Below, piece by piece: positions 6,413 to 32,652 of a DNA stretch of 36,065 nucleotides (positions are counted from its first letter, which is position 1; each line of letters begins with the position of its first letter). The translations under genes were made by a program, and so were the position numbers. The DNA lies in the NCBI GenBank assembly GCA_001914705.1, contig MNDB01000071.1, positions 1 through 36,065 on the forward strand, in the 5' to 3' direction. The stretch is from Actinobacteria bacterium 13_2_20CM_68_14. GTDB lineage: Bacteria > Actinomycetota > Thermoleophilia > Gaiellales > Gaiellaceae. The notes under the pieces are model-generated. The model searched no databases and had not been told where the DNA came from. It was given only the letters and a program-made list of their open reading frames with translations.

Positions 6413-7852
6413 ATGAGAGCAGCGATCTTCGCCGACGAGAACCGTAAGTGGTGGACGCTGGGGGCGCTCTCGTTCGCCCTGTTCATGATCATGCTCGACA
6501 ACACGATCGTGAACGTCGCCCTGCCGGCGATCAAGAGCGACCTCGGGATCGGGACCTCGGAGCTCGAGTGGGTCGTGACGGCGTACGCACTGACCTTCGC
6601 GGTGCTCCTGCTCACCGGCGGCAAGCTCGGCGACCTCTACGGGCGGCGCTTGATCTTCACGATCGGTCTCATCGTCTTCACGGTCTCCTCGCTCGCCTGT
6701 GGCCTCTCGTCCAGCGCCACCGAGCTGATCGCCGCGCGCGCGGTGCAGGGCGTCGGCTCCGCGCTGATGATGCCGGCGACGCTTTCGATCATCAGCGCGA
6801 CGTTTGCGGCACGCGAACGCGGGATGGCGATCGGGATCTGGGCCGGGGTCTCGGCGATGGCGCTCGCGATCGGGCCGCTGCTCGGCGGCGTCATCACCGA
6901 GCACATCTCCTGGAACTGGATCTTCTACGTCAACGTCCCGATCGGGATCCTCGCCGTCGTCGCCAGCATCGTCGTGGTGCCTGAATCGAAGGACAGCTCG
7001 CGAGAGCAGCGGCTCGACCTGCCGGGTCTGCTCACGTCCGGGATCGGCCTGCTGGCGCTCGTCTACGCACTGATCGAGGCGCACAGCTTCGGGTGGACGT
7101 CGGCGCGGATCCTCAGCCTCTTCGTCATCGCGGCGGTCGCGCTGGCCGCCTTCGTCTACGTCGAGATGCATCAGCGGCTGCCGATGCTCGACCTCGCCCT
7201 CTTCCGCAACGGGACCTTCACGGGGGCGAACATTGTCGCGATCCTCGTCACGCTCGCGATGTTCGGGATCTTCGTCTTCTTCCCGATCTACATGCAGACC
7301 TTCCTCGGCTGGTCGCCGATCCAGGCGGGCGCTGCGCTACTGCCGTGGACGATCCTGATCGTCATCTTCGCTCCGATCGCCGGCAAGCTCTCCGACCGCG
7401 TCGGCTCACGCTGGCTGATCGCGGGCGGGATGACGACCGTGGCGCTCTGCTGCCTCGAGCTCTCGACCGTGACTGTCAACTCCGGGTTCTGGCAGATGCT
7501 CCCCGGCTTCATGCTCGGCGGCCTCGGGATGGCGTTCGTGATGACGCCGATGTCCGCGGCCGTCATGGGCGCGGCGCCTGTCGACAAAGCGGGGGTCGCC
7601 TCGGGCGTGCTCAACACCTTTCGGCAGGTCGGCGTCGCGCTCGGGATCGCGATCATGGGCGCGATCATCACGAACCGCGAGGCGGCGGCCGCCCGCGCCG
7701 GCGCCGACCCGCCGCACGCCTTCGTCCACGGCCTGACCTTCGGGATGCGCGTCAGCGCCGTGATCTGCCTCGGCGGCGCGCTCGCGGCGGCGGCGCTCAT
7801 CCGCAAGTACCGCTACGCCGAGCAAGCGCAGCCGCTGGCCGAAGCGGCCTGA
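6413..7852 (+). CDS. MFS transporter, DHA2 (EmrB/QacA-like, about 14 TMS) drug/H+ antiporter family
   Basis: The 479-aa ORF reads WWTLGALSFALFMIMLDNTIVNVALPAI, then LGDLYGRRLIF (MFS motif A-like), followed by many hydrophobic segments. It is divergent from the Acs-like gene with a 40-bp gap. Confidence 0.85.
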   Translation: MRAAIFADENRKWWTLGALSFALFMIMLDNTIVNVALPAIKSDLGIGTSELEWVVTAYALTFAVLLLTGGKLGDLYGRRLIFTIGLIVFTVSSLACGLSSSATELIAARAVQGVGSALMMPATLSIISATFAARERGMAIGIWAGVSAMALAIGPLLGGVITEHISWNWIFYVNVPIGILAVVASIVVVPESKDSSREQRLDLPGLLTSGIGLLALVYALIEAHSFGWTSARILSLFVIAAVALAAFVYVEMHQRLPMLDLALFRNGTFTGANIVAILVTLAMFGIFVFFPIYMQTFLGWSPIQAGAALLPWTILIVIFAPIAGKLSDRVGSRWLIAGGMTTVALCCLELSTVTVNSGFWQMLPGFMLGGLGMAFVMTPMSAAVMGAAPVDKAGVASGVLNTFRQVGVALGIAIMGAIITNREAAAARAGADPPHAFVHGLTFGMRVSAVICLGGALAAAALIRKYRYAEQAQPLAEAA

Positions 7853-7945
7853 ACCCGACAGACCTCGCCGGCCGCGGGCCGCATCGTCAAGGACAGCGGT
7901 CCCGATGCCGAAGCAAAGGTATTCATGTGCAGCGCTTTCGGCGAC

Positions 7946-8123
7946 AAAAATGAAAGGCCCCGGCTGCGGCACCCGGGGCCTTTCTATCTAGTTGAGCGGC
8001 TTCTAGAGGCGACGACCCGGAAGCTATGACTCTGCGGCCCAGCCACCGCTTCCGGGTATCCGTCGCCATTCCTTGGCGCGCCCCCTGCAGCTCCGACCTG
8101 GCGTCCGGCGGTGCTGCAGAGTT
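7946..8123 (-). ncRNA. Candidate small non-coding RNA (about 175-180 nt), family unknown
   Basis: It is bounded by a near-consensus promoter (next feature) and the terminator at 7952..7984 plus its U-tract. Strong internal hairpins are present, for example CUCUGCAGC...GCUGCAG and GGCGACG-gaua-CCCGGAAGC...GCUUCCGGG-u-CGUCGCC. The only ATG ORF (49 codons) has no spaced SD and reads through the terminator. Ends are +/- a few nt. Confidence 0.55.
7952..7984. terminator. Bidirectional intrinsic terminator hairpin (12-bp GC-rich stem)
   Basis: The stem is GAAAGGCCCCGG / CCGGGGCCTTTC with loop ctgcggcac. On the minus strand it is followed by AUUUUU (7951..7946). On the plus strand it is followed by uaucua after the UUUC of the stem. 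Confidence 0.75.
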
Positions 8124-8128
8124 GCCTG

Positions 8129-8157
8129 ACTATAGACCTGTCCCCGGAGGTCGTCAA
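8129..8157 (-). promoter_or_regulatory. Sigma-70/SigA-type promoter TTGACG-N17-TATAGT driving the candidate sRNA
   Basis: On the minus strand the -35 TTGACG lies at 8157..8152, the spacer is exactly 17 nt, and the -10 TATAGT lies at 8134..8129. A purine about 6-7 nt downstream (about 8123) is the likely TSS. Confidence 0.6.
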
Positions 8158-8263
8158 GTAGCTCGATCAAGTGATTTTCAGGCTCGGCGCTTGACTCGTT
8201 TTTCGCGCGTACATGCCCCTTTAGGGGGAGGACGGAATGGCCAGGGTTGCTTATTGGTGAAGT

Positions 8264-9631
8264 ATGCAGTTGACTTCCCGTGAGTCGCTCATGCCGCGCG
8301 CTGCCACGAACACCCGCCGCAGCACCCACTCGGGCAATCGCCTGGGCGAGCGCGTGCGGCAGCTGCGCGTCGCCGCCGGCCTGACGCAGACCGATCTCGC
8401 GGGCGACCGTTTCTCGAAGGAGTACGTCAGCCAGATCGAGCGCGGCAAGACCAGGCCCACGCGCGAGACCATCGAGTGGCTCGCGGTCAAGCTCGGCGTC
8501 GATCCCGGCTTCCTCGAGCGTGGCGTCTCGGCAGACGAGCGCCGGCGCGTCGACACGTTGCTCGCGCGCGCGGACGCGCTGACCGAATCCCATCAGTACG
8601 CAGAGGCGATCGCCGAGTACGAGAACTGCAAGACGGCCGTCCTCGCGACGGGTGTGACCGAGCTCGAGGTTCGCCAGCTCGCGGGCGAGGCTTGGGCTCG
8701 GATGGAGAACAGCGAAATCCAGCCCGCGATCGAGTTGCTCAACCGGGCGCGGATGCTTGCCGAGGCGCCGGAGTTCTCCGACGTCGATCGCGCGGATCTG
8801 TTCTTCCGCCTCGCCGTCTGCCGCTACCAGCTCTCCAGCATCACGACAGCGCTCAACCTCCTCAACGAGGCTCTGACGCTGGCCGAGGGCTCCGAGCTTC
8901 CGTGCGACCGTCTGCGCGCGGACATCCTCGGCTGGCGCTCGCGCTGTTACCGCCGCCAGCGAGACTTCGAAGCAGCGCGCGAGGACGTCGAGCGCGCGCT
9001 CGAGCTCGCGCAGGCGCTCGACGATCCGCGCAAGACCGCGGACACGTACTTCCAGGCTTCTCTTGTCAGCGAGCGGATGGGGCACTGGGTCCAGGCGCGC
9101 AATTACGCTGAGCGCGCGAAGGCCTACTACGAGCAGATCAACGACGAGCGAAACGTCGGCAGGCTGCTCAACAACCTCGGTGGCCTGAACTTCCACCTCG
9201 GCAAGCCCGAGCAGGCGATCGAGCATCTCAAGGACGCGTACCGCGTGCTGCTCGACAAGGGCAGCGACGCGGAGGCCGCGAATGTCGTCGCATCACTCGC
9301 CCACGTGCACCTGATGACGGGCGAGGCGACCGCGGCCGAAGAGGAAGCACGTCACGCGCTCTCCCTGATGGAGAACCGCGACGACTTCCTCTACCACGTC
9401 GCTCCGACGCAGCTCGTGCTGGGTCGAGCGTTGATGGAACAGGGGCGCCTGGACGAGGCGGAGGAATTTCTCGCCGCGTCCGATGCGAGCGCCGAGCAGC
9501 TCGAGTCCATCGGCCACCAGGCGGCAGCCTGGATGGCTCGTGGCGACCTCGCCGCCAAGCGTGGCGAGGACAGCGCTGCGGCCAAGCTCTACCGCCGGGC
9601 GGCGGAAGCACTGCAGGACGTCCGGTTCTAA
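8264..9631 (+). CDS. XRE-family HTH + tetratricopeptide-repeat transcriptional regulator (RRNPP-like receptor architecture)
   Basis: The 455-aa ORF has an N-terminal Cro/C1-type HTH (LGERVRQLRVAAGLTQTDLAG...YVSQIERGKTRPTRETIEWLAVKLGV). The rest consists of repeated about-34-aa helical TPR-like units (...YAEAIAEYENC..., ...FEAAREDVERALELAQ..., ...WVQARNYAERAKAYYEQ..., ...PEQAIEHLKDAYRV..., ...LDEAEEFLAAS...). Confidence 0.85.
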   Translation: MQLTSRESLMPRAATNTRRSTHSGNRLGERVRQLRVAAGLTQTDLAGDRFSKEYVSQIERGKTRPTRETIEWLAVKLGVDPGFLERGVSADERRRVDTLLARADALTESHQYAEAIAEYENCKTAVLATGVTELEVRQLAGEAWARMENSEIQPAIELLNRARMLAEAPEFSDVDRADLFFRLAVCRYQLSSITTALNLLNEALTLAEGSELPCDRLRADILGWRSRCYRRQRDFEAAREDVERALELAQALDDPRKTADTYFQASLVSERMGHWVQARNYAERAKAYYEQINDERNVGRLLNNLGGLNFHLGKPEQAIEHLKDAYRVLLDKGSDAEAANVVASLAHVHLMTGEATAAEEEARHALSLMENRDDFLYHVAPTQLVLGRALMEQGRLDEAEEFLAASDASAEQLESIGHQAAAWMARGDLAAKRGEDSAAAKLYRRAAEALQDVRF

Positions 9632-9650
9632 TCGACGAGAGGAGGTGAAT

Positions 9651-9857
9651 ATGAAAAAGACGCGACTTCTCCCCTTGCTTTGTGCCCTCACCGCTGTTGC
9701 ATGGTCGCTTCCCGGCCTCGCCCAGGCGAAGGCCTCGAAGGCTCCGAATCACGCGAACGCGGCAAGCATGTTCGACGGCGGCAGCGCCTTCGACGGCGGC
9801 AGCGCCTTCGACGGCGGCAGCATGTTCGACGGCGGCAGCATGTTCGACGGTCACTAG
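9651..9857 (+). CDS. Small secreted pro-peptide (68 aa) with five C-terminal tandem hexapeptide repeats S(M/A)FDGG
   Basis: ATG 9651 is preceded by GGAGG (9641..9645) at ideal spacing, 19 nt after the regulator stop. The product is MKKTRLLPLLCALTAVAWSLPGLAQA|KASKAPNHANAA-SMFDGG-SAFDGG-SAFDGG-SMFDGG-SMFDGH. It has a classic n-h-c Sec signal with an AQA cleavage site. The track shows it only as the tail of a 124-aa ORF (9483..9857). Confidence 0.7.
   Translation: MKKTRLLPLLCALTAVAWSLPGLAQAKASKAPNHANAASMFDGGSAFDGGSAFDGGSMFDGGSMFDGH
9765..9854 (+). repeat. 5 x 18-bp perfect or near-perfect tandem repeat inside the pro-peptide ORF
   Basis: The units are agcatgttcgacggcggc / agcgccttcgacggcggc / agcgccttcgacggcggc / agcatgttcgacggcggc / agcatgttcgacggtcac. 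They start at 9765, 9783, 9801, 9819 and 9837. Confidence 0.95.
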
Positions 9858-9913
9858 GCCCGCGCGCGGTCTCCACCTCGTGAGGTCGGCGCGGGCCCGA
9901 GACTAAACTCGGG
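9857..9913 (+). terminator. Two GC-rich stem-loops directly after the pro-peptide stop (possible U-tract-less terminator)
   Basis: The first pairs GGCCCGCGC (9857..9865) with GCGCGGGCC (9889..9897) and has an inner CCTC-gt-GAGG. The second is CCCGAG-actaaa-CTCGGG (9896..9913). No T-run follows. Confidence 0.3.
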
Positions 9914-9921
9914 TCCGTGGC

Positions 9922-10027
9922 GTCTTGTCGACGTTCGATCTTTCGCGGCGACCTTGCAAGCCGGGATTAAGCGGACGCCCGAGCCAAGCTCGGACGTCCT
10001 CCGGGCGGCGTCGCAAGCGAACGCCTC
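9922..10027 (-). repeat. Interspersed two-hairpin repeat element, copy A (sense strand = minus)
   Basis: The minus strand reads GAGGCGTTCGCTTGCGACGCC-gcccGGAGGACGTCCGAGC-ttg-GCTCGGGCGTCC-GCTTAATCCCGG.... This is the same module order as the copies at 12213, 12323, 18134, 26122 and 28142. Confidence 0.75.
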
Positions 10028-10931
10028 GCGCGCCGTCTTCTTGGCCGTTCTCGTCGCGCTCGTTGCGGCAGGCTGCGGGACGAATAGCCGGCCTCCAAGC
10101 GGAGCTGGTGCTTCCGGCACGCTGGGGTCTCTGATGAAGCGGCCGGGCGAGGATGTGACCGTCGTCGCCGGCGACTCGGACTTCGCTGTCGGTGATGTCC
10201 GGTTCTCGTTCCTCGTCATCAACCACGACGCGCGGCCGGTCGAACGCAGCCGGGCGCGGGTCTGGCTCGCTGGCTCGCAGTCCGGGCGCCCGTTCCAGAG
10301 CGCGACCGCGAGGCTGGAGCCGATCGGGCCGCCGGGCGCCGGCGAGGCGGCGTTCGGGGGGGTCGGCCGGATCTACGTCGTGCAGCTCCGCATTCACCGC
10401 CCGGGCCGCTACTGGCTCGTCGCCGAGCCGATCGGGGCAAAGATCCAGGCGCTCGGAACACTGGACGTCAAGGCGCGTTCCGATTCGGTCGCGGTCGGCG
10501 CAAAGGCGCCGGCTTCGGCCACGCCCACGCTCGCCAGCACCCATGGCGCGGTCTCGCAGCTGACTACCCGCGTGCCGCCGGATCGGGACCTGCTTCGTTA
10601 CTCGATCGCTTCCTCGCTGGCCGCCCACAAGCCGTTTGTCGTCACCTTCGCGACCCCGCGCTTCTGCACGAGCCGAACCTGTGGGCCGGTCGTAGACGTC
10701 GTCGACCGCGTGCGTCGCAAGTTCGCAGCCCGCGGCGTCCGCTTCATTCACGTCGAAGTCTTCAAGCAAAACCGGCCTGCACTCGGCTACAACCGCTGGA
10801 TGCGACAGTGGGGCCTGCAGTCGGAGCCGTGGACCTTCCTCGTCGGCCGGGACGGCCGGATCGAGGCCAAGTTCGAGGGCTCCGTCTCGGCGGCGGAGCT
10901 GGAAGCGGCGATCCGGCAGTTGCTCTCGTAG
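9954..10931 (+). CDS. Putative lipoprotein with a C-terminal thioredoxin-fold (redoxin/SCO-like) domain
   Basis: The 325-aa ORF has a lipobox LVAAGC after a hydrophobic stretch (AVFLAVLVALVAAGCG). The C-terminal part reads KPFVVTFATPRFCTSRTCGPVVDVV...WTFLVGRDGRIEAKFEG, typical of redoxin-fold proteins. The start (TTG 9954) is uncertain and lies inside repeat copy A. Confidence 0.55.
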   Translation: MQAGIKRTPEPSSDVLRAASQANASRAVFLAVLVALVAAGCGTNSRPPSGAGASGTLGSLMKRPGEDVTVVAGDSDFAVGDVRFSFLVINHDARPVERSRARVWLAGSQSGRPFQSATARLEPIGPPGAGEAAFGGVGRIYVVQLRIHRPGRYWLVAEPIGAKIQALGTLDVKARSDSVAVGAKAPASATPTLASTHGAVSQLTTRVPPDRDLLRYSIASSLAAHKPFVVTFATPRFCTSRTCGPVVDVVDRVRRKFAARGVRFIHVEVFKQNRPALGYNRWMRQWGLQSEPWTFLVGRDGRIEAKFEGSVSAAELEAAIRQLLS

Positions 10932-11077: not shown

Positions 11078-11929
11078 ATGGCGGAGAACGGATACGCGAA
11101 GCCGGTACTCGTGACCACCGACTGGCTGGCCGAGCACCTGAACGACGACAGCGTCGTGGTCGCCGAGGTCGACGAGAACCCCGATCTGTACGACGAGGGA
11201 CACATCGCGGGGGCGGTCAAGCTGCACTGGCGCGACGACCTACAGGATCCCGTCGAGCGCGATTTGGTCGACAAGCCGACCTTCGAGCGCCTGCTCAGCG
11301 AGCGCGGGATCGCGAACGACACAACCCTCGTCCTCTACGGCGACAAGAACAACTGGTTCGCGGCCTACGCCTACTGGTACCTGAAGATCTACGGGCACGG
11401 CGACGTGCGCATCCTCGACGGCGGCCGCCAGAAGTGGGCGGATGAGGCACGTGAGTTCACGGCCGAGACCCCGCAGCCGCAACAGGCCGACTACAGGGCC
11501 AACGAGCGCGACGAGTCGATCCGGACGTACCGGGACTCTGTCAGAGCGCAGATCGGCGAGCAGTCGAAGGCGCTCGTCGACGTCCGCAGCCCGCAAGAGT
11601 ACGCCGGCGACCTGATCGCCCCGCCCGGCTACGAGCAGGAGGGCGCGCAACGGGCCGGCCACATCCCGACCGCGGCGTCGATTCCCTGGGCAACGGCCGT
11701 CCGCGACGACGGGACCTTCAAGAGCGCAGACGAGCTCCGCGAACTCTACGAGGGGAAAGGCGTCACGCCGGAAAAAGAGGTGACAGCGTACTGCCGGATC
11801 GGCGAGCGCAGCGCTCACACCTGGTTCGTCCTCCGCGAACTGCTGGGCTACGAAACGGTCAAGAACTACGACGGCTCGTGGACGGAGTGGGGCAACCTCG
11901 TCGACGTGCCGATCGAAAAGGGTTCCTAG
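11078..11929 (+). CDS. Thiosulfate sulfurtransferase (tandem rhodanese, CysA2/SseA type)
   Basis: The 283-aa ORF has a strong SD AGGAGG. It is collinear with mycobacterial CysA2-type rhodaneses as I recall them: ...[22 protein letters not shown]..., [28 protein letters not shown] and the active-site loop [35 protein letters not shown]. Confidence 0.9.
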
Positions 11930-19124: not shown

Positions 19125-20732
19125 CTACCCGAAGGTAAACGAGTAGACAGAGACGCCGGGCGTGAAGCTGAGGCGAAGCTGGGCGTCCAGCAGCTGTGGC
19201 CGGGTCACGACCGTGTACAGGCGGTCGATCCCCTTGACGGCGATGGTCCGTAGTTTGTGGCCGTCGACCGAGACGCCGACGCTGCCGTGGCCGCCCATGA
19301 CGAGGTAGACATCCTTCGCGTGGAAGTGGAGCGCAAGCTCTGCGTCTCGCACGGCGGTCGTATGCTCGCCACCGAGCCGCCAACGACCTGACAGCGCCCA
19401 GCTGTTCTGGCTGACGTCCTCCGGGGCCTTGTAGTTGTGTGCAACGTTGGGCAAAGCCTTCGAGCCCACATAGCCCGTGAGCTGCCGGTCGTAGCCGAGG
19501 TAGGTCTCGGGAGTCGTCAACTCGGTCGGCGTCATGTCGGCGAGGTCGGCCTTCCCAGGCCCTGCTTCGCCGAGGAGCTGCCGGATCAGGTTCTCCGTCC
19601 GGCTGTACTCACCCTCGCCAAAGTGCTCGTTGCGGATGTCCCCGCGCTTGTCGATCAGGTACTCGGCCGGCCAGTACTGGTTCCGGTAGGCGTTCCACGT
19701 CTTGTACTTCGGATCGAGCGCGACGGGCCAGCTGACGCCGAGCTGCTTGGTCGCCGAGCCGACGTTGTGCGGCACCGCCTCGAACGCGAACTCCGGCGTG
19801 TGAACGCCGACGATCTCCAGTCCGGCCCGGTGGTAGGCCTTCCACCAGGACTTCAGGTGCGGCAGCGTCCGCAGGCAGTTGATGCAGGAGTACGTCCAGA
19901 AATCGACGAGGACGACCTTGCCGCGGAGCTGCTGCAGCGTCAGCGGCTTCGAGTTGAACCAGTCGCTGATGCCGGTGAAGGCGGGCGCGGGACCGAAGTT
20001 CGCAAGGTTGCTCGACTCGTGGTGACAGCGTCCGGTCAGCCGTTGCTGAACCGCGCAGCTGTTCTGGAGCCGGTCGGCGAGCCCCAACGTGCCGATGTTC
20101 GCGAGCGAGCGATCGACGTTGAACGTGATCAGCAGAGCCGTCACCGCGATCAGGGCACCGAGGCCGGCGCGAACCTGGGCCGCGTGCGCCCGGAAGAACT
20201 GCAAGCCGCCGGCTGCACGCCGGCCGCCGTAGGCGACCGCCAGCATCGGCAGTGCGATGCCGATCGCGTAGGCCAGCGCCACCGCCTCGCGCTCCCCGCT
20301 GCCGACGCTCGCAGAGCCGGTGATGATCGAGGCGAGAATCAGGCCGCCGCAGGGCACGAAGACGAGCCCGAGCGCCAGCCCGAGCACGAACCCGCCACCG
20401 AGATCGCCCCCGGGCCGGCGGCTGAAGCGGGCTAGCGGGCGCTCGAGCACCTGGCCCAGGCGGGGAACGAGCAGGGTCGCCGCGACGACGAAGAGGAGCG
20501 CGATCGAGATGTTGCGCAGGAGATCCTGGGGGAGGTGAAGCTGTCGCAGCAGCCATGACACCGCGAGCAGCGAGCCGGTGAAGCCGACGACGACTCCGGC
20601 GATGATCGCAAGCGGGCGGCGGTGCCCTCCGCTCGCGCCGCCTGCGAAGACGATCGGTAAGACCGGGAACGCGCAGGGTGAGACCGCGGTGATGACACCG
20701 ACGAGAAAGGCGACCCCGAGCAGAAGAGCCAC
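19125..20732 (-). CDS. dipZ: DipZ-type fusion protein: CcdA/DsbD-like thiol-disulfide transporter + thioredoxin-like domain + C-terminal beta-sandwich domain
   Basis: The 535-aa ORF has N-terminal TM helices with conserved Cys (VSPCAFPVLP, FVPCGG). These are followed by KVVLVDFWTYSCINCLRTLPHL (CxxC redoxin) and a C-terminal domain ...LSGRWRLGGEH...LHFHAKDVYLVMGG... The start is a GTG. Confidence 0.85.
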   Translation of the reverse strand: MALLLGVAFLVGVITAVSPCAFPVLPIVFAGGASGGHRRPLAIIAGVVVGFTGSLLAVSWLLRQLHLPQDLLRNISIALLFVVAATLLVPRLGQVLERPLARFSRRPGGDLGGGFVLGLALGLVFVPCGGLILASIITGSASVGSGEREAVALAYAIGIALPMLAVAYGGRRAAGGLQFFRAHAAQVRAGLGALIAVTALLITFNVDRSLANIGTLGLADRLQNSCAVQQRLTGRCHHESSNLANFGPAPAFTGISDWFNSKPLTLQQLRGKVVLVDFWTYSCINCLRTLPHLKSWWKAYHRAGLEIVGVHTPEFAFEAVPHNVGSATKQLGVSWPVALDPKYKTWNAYRNQYWPAEYLIDKRGDIRNEHFGEGEYSRTENLIRQLLGEAGPGKADLADMTPTELTTPETYLGYDRQLTGYVGSKALPNVAHNYKAPEDVSQNSWALSGRWRLGGEHTTAVRDAELALHFHAKDVYLVMGGHGSVGVSVDGHKLRTIAVKGIDRLYTVVTRPQLLDAQLRLSFTPGVSVYSFTFG

Positions 20733-20761
20733 GGCTTATGGTCCTTCGTTGAAGCCGGGCG

Positions 20762-23266
20762 TTACGGTTCTGGCGCCGGCGCGGGCTCCGGCTTTGCCGG
20801 CTCGTCTGTCGGCTTCGTGGCGTCCTGCGCCGCCTGCGGCTGCTGCTGCCCGTTCTGGGCCTGCTGCTGCTGCTGCTGCTGCGCGTTCTGAGACTTCTTC
20901 TTGCGCCGTCTCCGCCGCCGGCGCGATCTTCCGCTCGGCTGCTTGGGCGCCGGCAGGTTCTCGGCGAGCCCGTGCGCGACTTCCGGCAGCGTGCCGAGCT
21001 GCTCGCGGGCGGCGTCGATCAGCTGGTTGGCGCGCGGTGTGTAGCCCTCGGCGGATGCGAGCAGCGCCGCCCCCACTTCGAGCGGTTGCTCGCGGGCGGC
21101 GTTGACGAGCTTCGCGGCGTTCTCCTCGTGACGGTGTCCCCGCGAGTTGGCCAGCGCCCCGAGCAGGCGTTTCGCCTCCGGGAACTCGGCGCTCGCCCGG
21201 CGATCCTGCACCTTGCGCGTTGCGCGCGCGAGCCGCCAGATCCAGCGGGCGAGGATCTGCTCGGGCGCATCGGCTTTACCCTCGCCGATCGCGCGCAGGA
21301 GGATGCGGACTCCCTGGACGCGGTCCTTCTCCCAGGTCGGAGCCTGGGTGACCAGGGTGACGAGATCGTCGAAATCAGCGCGCTCGACCACCATCGAGAC
21401 GCGGTCGGCGAGAGCCGTCATTCGCAGCCGGCGGTTCGGGTTCTCCGCGGCGCAGGTGGCCAGGAAAGTCTCGAGCGCACCCCTGGACGCGCCGCCCTCG
21501 GTGAACTTCTTCGCGAACTCGACACGCTCGTCGAAGCGGACGTTGCGACCGGCGATCGTCGCCCAGTAGCGCTGCTCGTCCTCGTCGAGGAAGCGCGGGT
21601 CGATCCGCTGCCACTCGCGCGTGATCACACCGAGCCGGCGCTTCACGTCGGCCGTGACCGGCACGAGCCAGGGCGCCGGCGAGAGCTTCCGGCGGGCGCG
21701 CCGCTGCTGGCGGCGCCGAGGCGCCGGCGTGACGCGCGCGCCTTCGCGGTAGAAGTCGGAGTCGAGCAGGCTGTGCAGCGAGACGACGCGCTCGTTGTGG
21801 GTCGCCGCCTTGGGCACGAAGTCGACCACGACGCCCGCTTCCTTGCGCGGGTGCATGCGCATGATCCGGCCGATTCGCTGCTGGTAGACGCGCTTGCTCG
21901 CGGTCGGAGCCAGGTGCATGCAGACGGTCGCGCGCGGCGAGTTCCAACCCTCCGCGAGCAGCATTGCGTTGATCAGGACGTCAATCTCACCGCGCTCGTA
22001 GGCGGCGAGAATCTCGGCCAGCTTCACCGGCGGCGTCCGGCCGCTGACCGCCTCGGCCTTCAGCCCGGCCGCTCGGAACTCTTTCGCCAGGTTGTAGGCA
22101 TGCTCGACGCCGGCCGCGTAGACGATCCCGGGCGTCGAGTCGAAGCGGTCCCGGTAGAGGCTCGCGGCAGCCTGGTTCAGGGCCTGGTGGTCGAGCGCCT
22201 GCGCCAGGGCTCGCTCTTCGAAGTCGCCGCCGACGATCGGCACGGTGTGGATCGCCGCGGCCGGTGGAACGCGTAGGGAGCGCAGGGGCGCGATCAGCCC
22301 GCGCCGGGCCGCATCGGCCAGCGGCAGGTCGTCGACGGAAGCAGGAAAGACGTCCGAGACCTGCTTCGCGATCAGCTGCTCGGTCGCGGTCATGCCGATG
22401 TAGATCGGGTTCGTGAAGCCGCGGATCGCCGCGCTCGTCTTCTCGCCGAGGGCGGTGTGGGCCTCGTCGGCGATCACGAGGTGGTACGCCTCCGGGTTCA
22501 GGTCGCCCCAGTGGCGCGCGAACCAGGCGTAGGTCTGGATCGTCAGCGGGTTCGCTTCGGGCGGCTCTTGGCCGCGCTCGATGGCGTCGACTATCCGGTC
22601 GCCGTACCCCTCGGCCGTCAGGTCGCGGTTGAACTGGGAAACGAGCAGGCGGCGGTGGGTGAGGATGAGCACGCCCAGCGTGCGCGCGGCCTCGACGAAC
22701 CCGGCGGCGGCGATCGTCTTGCCGGACGCGGTCGGATGCCTAAAGCGAAAGCGGCGGACTGCGCCGGGGTCTTCTTCAGGCGAGAGCGGCAGCGGCAGCT
22801 CGTCCCCGTCGCCGTCGGCGGCCGCCGCCGGCTCCAGCTCGTCTTCCTCCTCCTCGTCGACCTCCGGCTCGGCGTAGGCGCCGTTCCCGTTCCCGAGCTC
22901 AGGCGCGGCCTGAGCCGCGGCGATCAATTCGGTGAGCATGCCGGCGAGCGCGTCGATCTGGTGCTTCCGCAGCTCGGTTCCGGAGGCGAGCCGCGGCGGA
23001 CGGTTGGTGAGCACGCGCTCGAGCCCGAGCATCAGCGCGTAGCGGCGCTTCCATTCGTAGGAGGGCGTGGTGCGGCCCGCGTCCATCTCCTCCACGGCGT
23101 CGTCGAGAGCAAGCCTGCGGGCAGTTCCGGGGGCCAGTACGACGGCAGGGTCTTCGTCGGCCCGGAGAAATGGCTCTCCGGCCCAGTCTTGCGCGCGGGC
23201 GGCGGTCTCGGTGAGACCGTTTGCCGCCTCCGGCGCTAGCGTCGGCTGCTCGGTCGTCTCTTGCAT
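20762..23266 (-). CDS. Superfamily-2 DEAD/DEAH-box (ResIII-like) helicase with a long C-terminal extension and a basic/poly-Q tail
   Basis: Track ORF 20762..23359. It has Walker A HPTASGKT, motif II VIADEAH, motif III MTAT and motif VI YQQRIGRIMR. A C-terminal region of about 330 aa of unknown function ends in [35 protein letters not shown].... The start is taken as ATG 23266 (MQETTEQ); ATG 23359 is also possible. Confidence 0.8.
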   Translation of the reverse strand: MQETTEQPTLAPEAANGLTETAARAQDWAGEPFLRADEDPAVVLAPGTARRLALDDAVEEMDAGRTTPSYEWKRRYALMLGLERVLTNRPPRLASGTELRKHQIDALAGMLTELIAAAQAAPELGNGNGAYAEPEVDEEEEDELEPAAAADGDGDELPLPLSPEEDPGAVRRFRFRHPTASGKTIAAAGFVEAARTLGVLILTHRRLLVSQFNRDLTAEGYGDRIVDAIERGQEPPEANPLTIQTYAWFARHWGDLNPEAYHLVIADEAHTALGEKTSAAIRGFTNPIYIGMTATEQLIAKQVSDVFPASVDDLPLADAARRGLIAPLRSLRVPPAAAIHTVPIVGGDFEERALAQALDHQALNQAAASLYRDRFDSTPGIVYAAGVEHAYNLAKEFRAAGLKAEAVSGRTPPVKLAEILAAYERGEIDVLINAMLLAEGWNSPRATVCMHLAPTASKRVYQQRIGRIMRMHPRKEAGVVVDFVPKAATHNERVVSLHSLLDSDFYREGARVTPAPRRRQQRRARRKLSPAPWLVPVTADVKRRLGVITREWQRIDPRFLDEDEQRYWATIAGRNVRFDERVEFAKKFTEGGASRGALETFLATCAAENPNRRLRMTALADRVSMVVERADFDDLVTLVTQAPTWEKDRVQGVRILLRAIGEGKADAPEQILARWIWRLARATRKVQDRRASAEFPEAKRLLGALANSRGHRHEENAAKLVNAAREQPLEVGAALLASAEGYTPRANQLIDAAREQLGTLPEVAHGLAENLPAPKQPSGRSRRRRRRRKKKSQNAQQQQQQQAQNGQQQPQAAQDATKPTDEPAKPEPAPAPEP

Positions 23267-30365: not shown

Positions 30366-31220
30366 CTAAGCAGCGAGGCGCCCGGGGACGTCGATCGTCC
30401 CCTGGCCGAGACCGGCGAGCATGTACACGCTCGCCAGACCGGCCCATTCACCGTATGGCTCGAGCAGCTCCGCGGTCTCCCAGCCTTCAACGCGGCGCCC
30501 GCGCATTCGGGCGAGCAGTTTGATCAGTCCAAGGTCGCCTACGAGCCCCCGCTCGTAGCGCCCGAGGCCTTCCAGGCAGACGACGCCGACCGACCACGGG
30601 CCGATTCTCGCCTCCCGGACGAGCCGCGCAGCGGCGGCGTCCGTCGAAACCTCCCGCAGCCGCTCGAGGTCAAGCGAGCGGCACAGCCGGACAAGCGCGC
30701 TCGCGCGCGGCCCGCCGAGGCCGAGCGCCCGGAGCTCGGCCGGCGAAAACCGGCCCATCACCGCAGGCGTCGGCGCCGCGTGCAGGCCGTCCAGCGAAGG
30801 CGTCGACGCGCGCACGACCCGGCGCTCAATCTCCCGCGCCCTACGCGCCGTGATCAGCTGGCCGCAGAGTGCGCGGAGCAGGGCCTGGGTTACCGTTGCG
30901 CACCGCAGGGGTCGCAGCCCTTTGAGCCGCCGAACCGTCGCTCCCAGGAACGGGTCGCGAGCGAAGCGCTGCACGAACTCCGAGTGGTCGTCGTCGAGCC
31001 CGAGCGTAAACCGCACGCGCTCGACCGCTTCCTCGCTTGGTGCGCGGACGACCACCACGCCGTCAGCGAGTTGTCGCGCCTCGGCGATCGCGAGCCGGCC
31101 GCCCACCTCGTAGACGGCGCGGAGAACTCCGCGGGCTGCGACCCGTGTCGCGTCGCTGCCGTGCCGCGTCGAGAGTCGGAGCGAATAGGGACCGCGCGCT
31201 CGGAGCGAAGCCTCGATCAA
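30366..31220 (-). CDS. HhH-GPD superfamily DNA glycosylase (AlkA-like DNA-3-methyladenine glycosylase II)
   Basis: The 284-aa ORF reads ...LLRALCGQLITARRAREIE..., ...REARIGPWSVGVVCLEGLGRYERGLVGDLGL... (helix-hairpin-helix + catalytic Asp region). The TTG start at 31220 overlaps the upstream stop (TTGA). Confidence 0.65.
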   Translation of the reverse strand: MIEASLRARGPYSLRLSTRHGSDATRVAARGVLRAVYEVGGRLAIAEARQLADGVVVVRAPSEEAVERVRFTLGLDDDHSEFVQRFARDPFLGATVRRLKGLRPLRCATVTQALLRALCGQLITARRAREIERRVVRASTPSLDGLHAAPTPAVMGRFSPAELRALGLGGPRASALVRLCRSLDLERLREVSTDAAAARLVREARIGPWSVGVVCLEGLGRYERGLVGDLGLIKLLARMRGRRVEGWETAELLEPYGEWAGLASVYMLAGLGQGTIDVPGRLAA

Positions 31221-32536
31221 CCGCGACTCTGTACGGGCTTCGAGGCGCTGAGCTGGGCTGCGCGGTCGAGGACGTCGAGCGCCTCCGACTCTCGCCCGGA
31301 CTTGCGCAGATAGCGAGCCCAGGCGCGGAACGCGTCCGCCTTCTCGACCTGCCGCCCGTGCTTCTCGATGAGCTCGACTGCGCGTTCGAAGGTCTCGTTC
31401 GCTTCGGGCTTTTCCTGTTGCGCAAGTGCCTCGGCCAGAATCACCAAGACGACGCCGTGCTCTGCCGGATGGTCATCGCCTAGCGCGGAGAGAGCTTCGC
31501 GGGCAAGCCGCTCCGACTCCTCCGGCCGGTTGAGTAGACCGGCGCGCCTTGCCTGGTCGGCGCGGAGATTTGCGAGATCGAGCGGATCGGGCTTCTGCCC
31601 GAACATCCGCTCGGCCGCATCGAATTGCGCCCCGGCTTCCTGCACCTTTCCCTGAGAGATCATGATCGTGCCGCAGAGCAGATGTGCACGCGCGAGATGG
31701 AGCGTGTCTTCCGTCACCTCGAGTAGCGCGATCGCGCGCCGGATGTAGTCGAGCGCGGCCGCCGGCTGGCCGCGAACCTCGTTCAGACGAGCCAGCGACC
31801 AGTAGAGCCGGACTCGCGTATAGGGGTCGGTCACCTGCTTGGCTTGAGCGAGCGCGTCTTCGAGCACGCCCTCTGCACGACTGAGGTCGCCCAGGTCGCT
31901 GAGCGCGTAGCTCAGGTACGTCGAAAAGCGAACCTGATTCGTGGTGTCTTCGGGATGTTCTTCTGCCACACGGACGAGACAGGCTTCGAAGAGGTCGACG
32001 GCGCGCTGCGGCTGGCCCAGAGAGGCATAGCACTGACCCAGCGTCGCGTAGACATCGGGACGCTGCGACGGGCCCAGGAGCTCGGACCCAATTGCGGCCT
32101 CCAGGCGCTCGACCGCGGCGGTGTTGTTCCCGGCCCGCGCCTCGGCGAGCCCGAGCGCGACACGGGCGCGGAGCGCAGAGGCCGAGTCGCCCGCAGCGAT
32201 CGCGTCATCGAGGATCCCCTGGACGGTGTCGCAGGCTTCCCCGGGATCGTCGGCCAGGCGCAGCCTGAGCTCCGCATCGGCAAGCCGGAGCTCTCGCTCG
32301 TCGACCTCGCGGAGATCGGACCCGGTCTCGAGGTATTCCACTGAGACGCCGAGCTTCGGAGCGAGCTGTCTGAGGGCCTTGACGGACGGGCGCCGCGCTT
32401 CTGCCTCGATCCGCGAGATGTAGGCATACGAGACCCCGGGAGACGAGAGCTCGCGCTGCGAAAGGTTGCGTTCGAGGCGTAATCGGCGCAGGCGCTGCCC
32501 GATTGACTCTGGTCCAGTCGTCGGTGGCCCCACCAT
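31217..32536 (-). CDS. XRE-family HTH + TPR transcriptional regulator, second paralog (no adjacent peptide ORF)
   Basis: Track ORF 31217..32650, trimmed to ATG 32536 (MVGPPTTGPESIGQRLRRLRLERNLSQRELS...YISRIEAEARRPSVKALRQLAPKLGV). The remainder is TPR-like repeats (...PQRAVDLFEACL..., ...LSRAEGVLEDALAQAK..., ...PAAALDYIRRAIALLE..., ...VQEAGAQFDAAERMF...). Confidence 0.8.
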   Translation of the reverse strand: MVGPPTTGPESIGQRLRRLRLERNLSQRELSSPGVSYAYISRIEAEARRPSVKALRQLAPKLGVSVEYLETGSDLREVDERELRLADAELRLRLADDPGEACDTVQGILDDAIAAGDSASALRARVALGLAEARAGNNTAAVERLEAAIGSELLGPSQRPDVYATLGQCYASLGQPQRAVDLFEACLVRVAEEHPEDTTNQVRFSTYLSYALSDLGDLSRAEGVLEDALAQAKQVTDPYTRVRLYWSLARLNEVRGQPAAALDYIRRAIALLEVTEDTLHLARAHLLCGTIMISQGKVQEAGAQFDAAERMFGQKPDPLDLANLRADQARRAGLLNRPEESERLAREALSALGDDHPAEHGVVLVILAEALAQQEKPEANETFERAVELIEKHGRQVEKADAFRAWARYLRKSGRESEALDVLDRAAQLSASKPVQSRG

Positions 32537-32652
32537 CGCCTGCGGCCTATCTTCGTCCTTCAGACGGCTGCCGTCAAAACCCAGGCGCGTGGATGTCTGA
32601 CAACAAATGACTACACAGCTTTCGGACCCACCCTCCTCTAGGCTTCGCACGC

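Follow-up and report, generated by a model that had tools for sequence, protein, structure and literature searches.

The systems functionally closest to the locus described here are NprR-NprX and PlcR-PapR of the Bacillus cereus group, in which the gene of a cytoplasmic transcription factor with a helix-turn-helix (HTH) domain and tetratricopeptide repeats (TPR) is followed on the same strand by that of a 40-70 aa Sec-exported pro-peptide carrying the active peptide in its C-terminal part. In the general RRNPP scheme of Bacillota, a Sec-exported pro-peptide encoded next to an HTH-TPR receptor undergoes extracellular proteolysis, and the product is taken up again by an oligopeptide permease (Opp) and binds to the TPR domain (PMC11343458). 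In the Rap, AimR, NprR and PlcR systems one propeptide can hold as many as 6-8 pheromone copies, identical or variant, which are processed and active (PMC9765709, PMC11343458), and a multi-copy precursor is in itself ordinary for RRNPP systems. A large-scale screen covered Firmicutes and viruses only, and Actinomycetota are said to signal typically by small molecules (PMC10075063). In the literature searched, we found no paper linking RRNPP or RRNPPA with Actinomycetota, Thermoleophilia or Gaiella, or describing XRE-TPR peptide receptors in Streptomyces, and the genome paper of Gaiella occulta makes no mention of oligopeptide transport or quorum sensing. Here we analyze a 36,065-nt stretch of contig MNDB01000071.1 from Actinobacteria bacterium 13_2_20CM_68_14, a member of the Gaiellaceae (Thermoleophilia, Actinomycetota); this whole stretch is called the window, and all positions refer to it. 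An open reading frame (ORF) of 68 aa at 9651-9857 ends in five tandem hexapeptide units, and our favored reading, held with moderate confidence, is that it encodes the pro-peptide of an RRNPP-like signaling pair whose receptor is the HTH+TPR regulator encoded upstream.

Comparison with known signaling systems

The locus shares the gene order and domain layout of NprR-NprX and PlcR-PapR. At 455 aa the regulator lies within the size range of RRNPP(A) receptors (~250-500 aa), it has a TPR-type domain together with the N-terminal HTH found in all subfamilies but Rap, and its size and repeat number resemble those of NprR. RRNPP pro-peptides are adjacent ORFs of 10-100 aa; here the 68-aa ORF starts 19 nt past the regulator's stop codon on the same strand. 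Such precursors give rise to a short mature peptide (5-10 aa), usually out of their C-terminal part; a conserved tail motif of 5-6 residues behind a hypervariable pro-region would be in keeping with this, the processed species itself being a prediction. Duplication of the Phr type is also seen, since the repeat unit equals the predicted mature peptide and both copy number and unit variants differ between strains (MAAMM, MAAM and MAMM, naming each unit by its second residue).

Other properties set the locus apart. Beyond generic HTH and TPR similarity there is no significant sequence homology to NprR-NprX or PlcR-PapR, the core motif is shared family-wide rather than split into pherotypes, a divergent small RNA (sRNA) is conserved next to the regulator, and the pair is a prediction from sequence. 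Tandem Phr, AimP, NprX and PapR propeptides, for example the Phr of phi3T and phi105, likewise hold several copies per precursor, here 1-5 of M and A types, and the conserved SxFDG element is of the same size as Phr or AimP peptides. Those tandem systems occur in Bacillota and their phages and plasmids, whereas the present one is chromosomal, comes from a family of uncultured soil actinobacteria and had no relatives in the viral contigs scanned. By analogy only, the layout also resembles that of the yeast alpha-factor precursor MFalpha1, in which a signal peptide and a pro-region precede tandem mature copies freed by endoproteolysis; unlike in MFalpha1, the units mostly abut directly and there are no dibasic Kex2-type spacer sites.

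The repeat array and its open reading frame

The array at 9765-9854 consists of five in-frame 18-bp units placed head-to-tail, exactly as the initial annotation had read them, and encodes SMFDGG, SAFDGG, SAFDGG, SMFDGG and SMFDGH followed by the stop codon. Units 1 and 4 are written AGC ATG TTC GAC GGC GGC, units 2 and 3 are each AGC GCC TTC GAC GGC GGC, and unit 5 is AGC ATG TTC GAC GGT CAC before TAG. The units differ only at codon 2, where ATG and GCC are unlike in all three bases, and in the last two codons of unit 5. Tandem Repeats Finder placed the array at 9759-9850 (period 18, 5.1 copies, 90% matches) with a score of 119, the strongest tandem repeat of the window; the remaining 28 rows scored 57 or less.

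Near-identity of the units had initially been taken as a sign of recent expansion. The source genome (69% GC; ~0.87 at third codon positions) prefers AGC, TTC, GAC and GGC as codons, so that the DNA identity of the units is by itself no proof of such an event. As judged from the sequence, this identity stems partly from amino-acid conservation and codon bias. What does speak for recent change in the array is the difference of five versus four copies between near-identical strains described below.

The array forms the C-terminus of the 68-aa ORF, which runs from ATG 9651 to TAG 9857 and encodes MKKTRLLPLLCALTAVAWSLPGLAQAKASKAPNHANAASMFDGGSAFDGGSAFDGGSMFDGGSMFDGH. Its N-terminus shows an n-region, MKKTR, followed by an h-region and a small-x-small site with predicted cleavage between AQA and K. 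The pro-region between signal peptide and array differs even among strains that are ~99% identical (NHANAA, NHAKAA, NHANTA and NQAKAA) and is not alignable between species. No family match to the 68-aa peptide was obtained in Pfam or NCBIfam. In a comparison restricted to the close clade, the signal-peptide codons contained 6, 4 and 14 variable sites at codon positions 1, 2 and 3, respectively. Variation is mostly at third positions, and the small ORF is therefore a real gene under selection; this substitution pattern indicates that purifying (coding) selection acts on it.

Pairing with the regulator and conservation of the tail motif

We compared 80 related loci from species-representative genomes with regulators 59-96% identical, 79 of which have an intact regulator. 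All 79 carry an ORF of 31-73 aa on the same strand, 0-63 nt (mostly 5-22) past the regulator's stop codon. When metagenomic proteins were added to the loci, 181 of the resulting 183 family peptides passed our rules for signal peptides. These results agree with the initial annotation, which had taken the repeat for the mature end of a pro-peptide paired with the regulator.

The C-termini of the family share the core motif [S/G]-[F/W/M/L]-[F/W/Y/S]-D-G, as in GSWFDGH, VGFFDGH, GGGFFDNWF, LGFSDGPL, SWWDGG and GLWDGPL. In an alignment of 82 tails, S or G occupies position -3 in 78 rows, F, W, M or L position -2 also in 78, F, W or Y position -1 in 70, and G position +1 in 69; D (or E) stands at position 0 in all 82 rows because that residue anchored the alignment. 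The residue following D-G is G, H, N, K, P, A, S or none, and the minimal conserved element is SxFDG. The repeat unit S-x-F-D-G(G/H) is equal to this family-wide tail motif, which in other clades is present as a single copy at the C-terminus. This correspondence gives in silico support to the earlier suggestion of a multi-copy signaling cargo.

Repetition of the motif is confined to the clade closest to the window, where peptides beside 85-96% identical regulators have 2, 3 or 4 copies, or 4 with spacers between them; in clades further away there is one copy. The initial annotation had held that orthologs without repeats next to a conserved regulator would speak against signaling. Such orthologs do exist in the distant clades; they imply that a single copy of the motif is sufficient and that repetition came on top of function without being its basis, which leaves the signaling idea itself standing.

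Copy-number variation

A protein search with the peptide yielded 105 metagenomic cluster representatives with a near-invariant signal peptide, a hypervariable pro-region and 1-5 copies of the unit, with spacers of 0-5 residues between units. Three and four copies are the most common states (45 and 42 representatives); two copies were found in 14, and one and five copies in 2 each. The expectation that copy number varies between strains is thus borne out, and it also holds at much closer range. Same-species contigs, which encode an amino-acid-identical regulator or were retrieved with a species-specific 30-mer, match the window at 98.4-99.4% identity. The M-A-A-M-M array of the window recurs in nine of these, while L086 has M-A-A-M and L083 has M-A-M-M. 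As a caution, all come from short-read assembly, although the 90-bp array fits within one read.

The pro-region variant of each four-unit allele matches a different five-unit haplotype, which implies that one unit was lost twice, independently. In a closely related lineage the array reads M-A-M-A-M. M and A units are not interconvertible by a single mutation, which makes the arrays mosaics reshuffled by slippage or unequal exchange. Changes always comprise whole, in-frame 18-bp units. Our best reading of these sequence comparisons is that repetition is a recent, still unstable, clade-specific elaboration in one Gaiellaceae clade, in a family for which one copy is enough.

A further contig of the same species, L089 (WNGI01018716.1), has a ~130-bp deletion near its locus position 9260-9320, corresponding to ~9565-9690 in the window. 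Lost with it are the final ~23 codons of the regulator, the intergenic ribosome-binding site and ~10 codons at the start of the peptide gene, resulting in an out-of-frame fusion. The contig may show a natural null allele or else an artefact of assembly.

The HTH+TPR regulator

Pfam identifies HTH_31 (8.8e-13) and HTH_3 (1.4e-8) at aa 26-84 of the regulator and TPR_12 (4.6e-23), TPR_2 and TPR_MalT in its TPR region. An AlphaFold 2 (AF2) model with a mean predicted local distance difference test (pLDDT) score of 85 has a 5-helix HTH, a linker helix and ~8 TPR-like helix pairs that form a superhelix. More than 7000 homologs were found, the best of them named Gaiellaceae; the close homologs all come from Gaiellaceae, Gaiellales or Thermoleophilia metagenome-assembled genomes, and a scan of viral contigs detected no relatives. 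The HTH is almost invariant across homologs. Profile comparison with the PDB gave weak matches to the TPR of RapJ (E=1e-3) and to the HTH of PlcR and ComR (~1e-3 to 2e-4). Foldseek, likewise run against the PDB, aligned the AF2 model to PlcR over the whole length (5e-7) and to Rap proteins at ~1e-6.

The longest ORF of the regulator opens at ATG 8264. Met10, at 8291, is invariant in 18 sequences and at least 90% conserved in 71, many homologs (446 aa) begin at its equivalent, and the stretch ahead of it shows the conservation of non-coding DNA. By these features Met10 is probably the true start. The window encodes a second regulator with HTH_3 and TPR domains at 31217-32650 (minus strand, 477 aa), 27% identical to the first over the full length. 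No adjoining small signal-peptide ORF was seen there; its downstream neighbor is a 284-aa ORF without a Pfam match.

The divergent small RNA and intergenic boxes

Upstream of the regulator and divergent from it lies a structured sRNA of ~180 nt with a minimum free energy of -101 kcal/mol (z = -5.5), which ends in a GC hairpin plus U-run terminator. Its DNA is near-invariant in the upstream alignment, and an nhmmer profile search found it in the same place and orientation in 83/83 loci. RNAalifold detected compensatory changes in 14 of 28 consensus pairs, and the apical and terminator loops each contain the invariant heptamer GCCGCAG. Rfam searches of the window and of 7840-8300 returned no family for this RNA. 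Its promoter, with hexamers TTGACG and TATAGT, is the sole promoter-like match in 7800-10300, where 0.1 would be expected.

Conservation of the intergenic region was assessed in 73 loci with regulators 59-96% identical. The best-conserved box, GTCAAGTAgCTCGaTCAAGTGATTTT, overlaps the -35 hexamer of the sRNA promoter, reaches upstream of it and holds the direct repeat TCAAGT-N8-TCAAGT. A second candidate operator is the near-palindrome CATGCCCCTTTAGGGGGAG. We also noted GAAGT-N9-ACTTC at 8256-8277, just ahead of the conserved regulator start, as another candidate operator.

Divergent regulator/sRNA pairs are commonly regulator/target pairs. In arbitrium AimR acts through the aimX RNA, and in oxyR/oxyS and gcvA/gcvB a regulator gene lies next to a divergent non-coding output RNA. 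The present regulator likewise adjoins a non-coding RNA with its own promoter and terminator, which may be an output or target of the regulator, as suggested by its position and the conserved boxes. Unlike in arbitrium, regulation of the RNA is a conjecture drawn from the DNA layout, and there is no sequence relationship to aimX.

Window surroundings

Coordinates of the features are collected in Table 1. What is conserved across loci is the sRNA, the regulator and the peptide, and the flanks beyond these are not. Downstream neighbors are inconstant: within the fetched flanks, a thioredoxin-like lipoprotein gene is present in just 38 of the 80 loci, for which reason it was rejected as a part of the module, and rhodanese, found in 20 of 80, does not belong to the conserved module either. 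The rest of the window is of housekeeping character, with genes for NAD synthase, FtsH, acetyl-CoA synthetase, a major facilitator superfamily (MFS) transporter, rhodanese, SelD, CtaA, CcdA-thioredoxin, FadB, thiolase, ProC and pyruvate:ferredoxin oxidoreductase. At 20718-20801 (plus strand), where two long minus-strand ORFs leave a short gap, ARAGORN called a tRNA-Phe(GAA) of 84 nt. The called tRNA is longer than usual and runs into the listed ends of both ORFs, which means that the ORF starts extend too far or that the call is spurious.

Table 1. Positions of the peptide gene, the regulator, the sRNA and nearby features in the window.
Feature	Position	Strand	Basis
Conserved structured sRNA gene, ~180 nt, divergent from regulator	7945..8124	-	fold, terminator, nhmmer profile
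Sigma-70-like promoter of sRNA, TTGACG-17-TATAGT	8129..8157	-	hexamers conserved across loci
Best-conserved intergenic box GTCAAGTAgCTCGaTCAAGTGATTTT, candidate operator	8153..8178	.	at least 90% conserved, 73 loci
Conserved near-palindrome CATGCCCCTTTAGGGGGAG (CATGCCCCTTTAGGGGGA), ahead of regulator start, candidate operator	8212..8230	.	70-90% or more, 73 loci
HTH(XRE)+TPR regulator, 455 aa, candidate cytoplasmic peptide receptor	8264..9631	+	Pfam, AF2 model, homologs
Ribosome-binding site GAGGAGGTG of peptide gene	9640..9648	+	sequence reading; 2-10 nt ahead of ATG 9651
Sec-type signal peptide MKKTRLLPLLCALTAVAWSLPGLAQA, predicted cleavage between AQA and K	9651..9728	+	tripartite n/h/c layout
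Pro-region KASKAPNHANAA, hypervariable linker, 12 residues	9729..9764	+	strain and species comparison
Five tandem 18-bp units S[M/A]FDG[G/H], candidate mature peptides	9765..9854	+	sequence reading, Tandem Repeats Finder
GC-rich hairpin right after stop codon, probable operon terminator, no U-tract	9857..9897	+	RNA fold -33.4 kcal/mol, z = -2.85
Thioredoxin-like putative lipoprotein, downstream of peptide gene	9954-10931	+	
Rhodanese	11078-11929	+	

Proposed signaling pair and alternative explanations

If the ORF and the regulator are an RRNPP-like pair, the two genes would be co-transcribed, as suggested by their anatomy: the 19-nt gap, a separate ribosome-binding site and a hairpin after the peptide gene. 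The precursor is predicted to leave the cell by the Sec pathway, with signal peptidase cutting after AQA. Extracellular proteases could then, by analogy with Phr, AimP and NprX, free up to five short peptides per precursor, SMFDG(G/H) and SAFDGG, which an oligopeptide permease would re-import and which would bind in the TPR groove of the regulator. Binding may alter the action of the invariant HTH at the nearby conserved operators, with the divergent sRNA as a candidate target. Repetition of the unit would alter both the number of ligands per precursor and the mix of the two ligand variants. A more elaborate proposal, which we regard as tentative and doubtful as a whole, is a vertically inherited three-part module of SxFDG-type pheromones, an RRNPP-like receptor and an sRNA output, in which one clade adjusts stoichiometry and composition through a variable-number tandem repeat (VNTR).

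Several points weigh against a signaling pair. Among strains with nearly identical receptors, the second residue of the unit can be M, A, S, N, T, H, F or Y, which may indicate either that the receptor tolerates variants or that the peptide is not its ligand. The pherotypes of Bacillota diversify fast and are often mobile, whereas here the core motif is constant across the family and the module belongs to the core genome, being single, chromosomal, vertically inherited and located among housekeeping genes. No oligopeptide permease or secreted protease was seen in the 36-kb window. The export signal was judged by simple rules (positively charged n-region, hydrophobic h-region, small-x-small site). 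In the Foldseek search generic TPR proteins (LGN/Pins and designed CTPRs) rank above PlcR and Rap at 4e-9, and TM-scores are low (0.3-0.4); as far as profiles and a predicted structure can tell, homology of the regulator to RRNPPA receptors is not demonstrable.

One alternative is a regulator with an effector: the secreted peptide would act outside the cell, as an antimicrobial, surface-active, metal-binding or matrix compound, the regulator would do no more than share its operon, and the TPR domain would sense something else. Family-wide conservation of the core motif without diversification fits this, as does the location of the module in the core genome. The Asp and the C-terminal His could bind metal, and the thioredoxin-like lipoprotein and rhodanese are often encoded downstream. 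Yet these downstream genes are inconstant, and only ~5 residues are conserved while the rest of the secreted part is hypervariable, a pattern that a short ligand typically shows and a folded or amphipathic effector does not. In many orthologs the secreted part would come to a mere 8-16 residues, and an HTH-fused TPR protein beside a secreted peptide is a hallmark of RRNPP systems. We consider an effector unlikely on balance.

It is quite improbable that the ORF is the multi-core precursor of a ribosomally synthesized and post-translationally modified peptide (RiPP), with units as core peptides that are modified by enzymes encoded elsewhere and then released. Multi-core precursors do occur among RiPPs, the motif contains an aromatic residue, and the regulator has a weak, sub-threshold match in NCBIfam to the RiPP-associated TPR protein HaaT (E=3e-8, 32 bits against a cutoff of 1125). 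Against this stand an N-terminus that has the character of a Sec signal and not of a RiPP leader, the single unit of most orthologs and the lack of conserved flanks; in addition, the 36-kb window contains no radical-SAM, YcaO, lanthipeptide, prolyl-oligopeptidase or other RiPP maturase gene.

The initial annotation had also pointed to the Gly-Gly that ends four of the five units as a cleavage signature of C39 peptidase/ABC exporters, each Gly-Gly being one processing site. Like ComC and class II bacteriocins, the product is a small, predicted-secreted candidate signaling peptide that contains Gly-Gly. Double-glycine sites, however, are part of N-terminal leaders, which are cut off in the cytoplasm in the course of ABC export, whereas here Gly-Gly lies inside or after the cargo units and behind a Sec signal peptide. 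It is not conserved either, given the variable residue after D-G in relatives, and the 36-kb window has no C39 peptidase or ABC exporter gene, so that we find such processing highly improbable. A structural or calcium-binding D-G-G repeat in a small secreted protein, also raised initially, or a non-coding VNTR in a chance open frame has a very slim chance in our view: Asp-Gly-Gly does resemble parts of calcium-binding loops and the array is unstable, but the units are hexapeptides S[M/A]FDGG and not RTX-type nonapeptides (GGxGxDxUx), no repeat fold is needed because orthologs in most clades carry one copy, the ORF, signal peptide and motif are conserved across 79 loci with third-position variation, and unit changes preserve the frame.

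Significance

RRNPP-type quorum sensing is treated as a trait of Bacillota. If the signaling pair proposed here is real, peptide quorum sensing would reach into a second phylum. Under the more tentative three-part proposal it would be the first RRNPP-type system outside Bacillota, wired through an sRNA. What makes the locus worth following up is its phylum, its conservation across the family, the ongoing copy-number polymorphism and the unclassified RNA linked to it, the RNA also being a lead in its own right. Gaiellaceae are an abundant and almost uncultured family of soil actinobacteria, and for such hard-to-culture organisms the tail motifs would provide candidate ligands that can be synthesized (SMFDGG, SAFDGG, SWFDGH, GFFDGH and others). 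With its naturally occurring range of 1-5 copies, its two unit types and the single-unit changes still under way between near-identical strains, the array would then be a system in which to ask whether copy number tunes the dose or the mixture of a signal.

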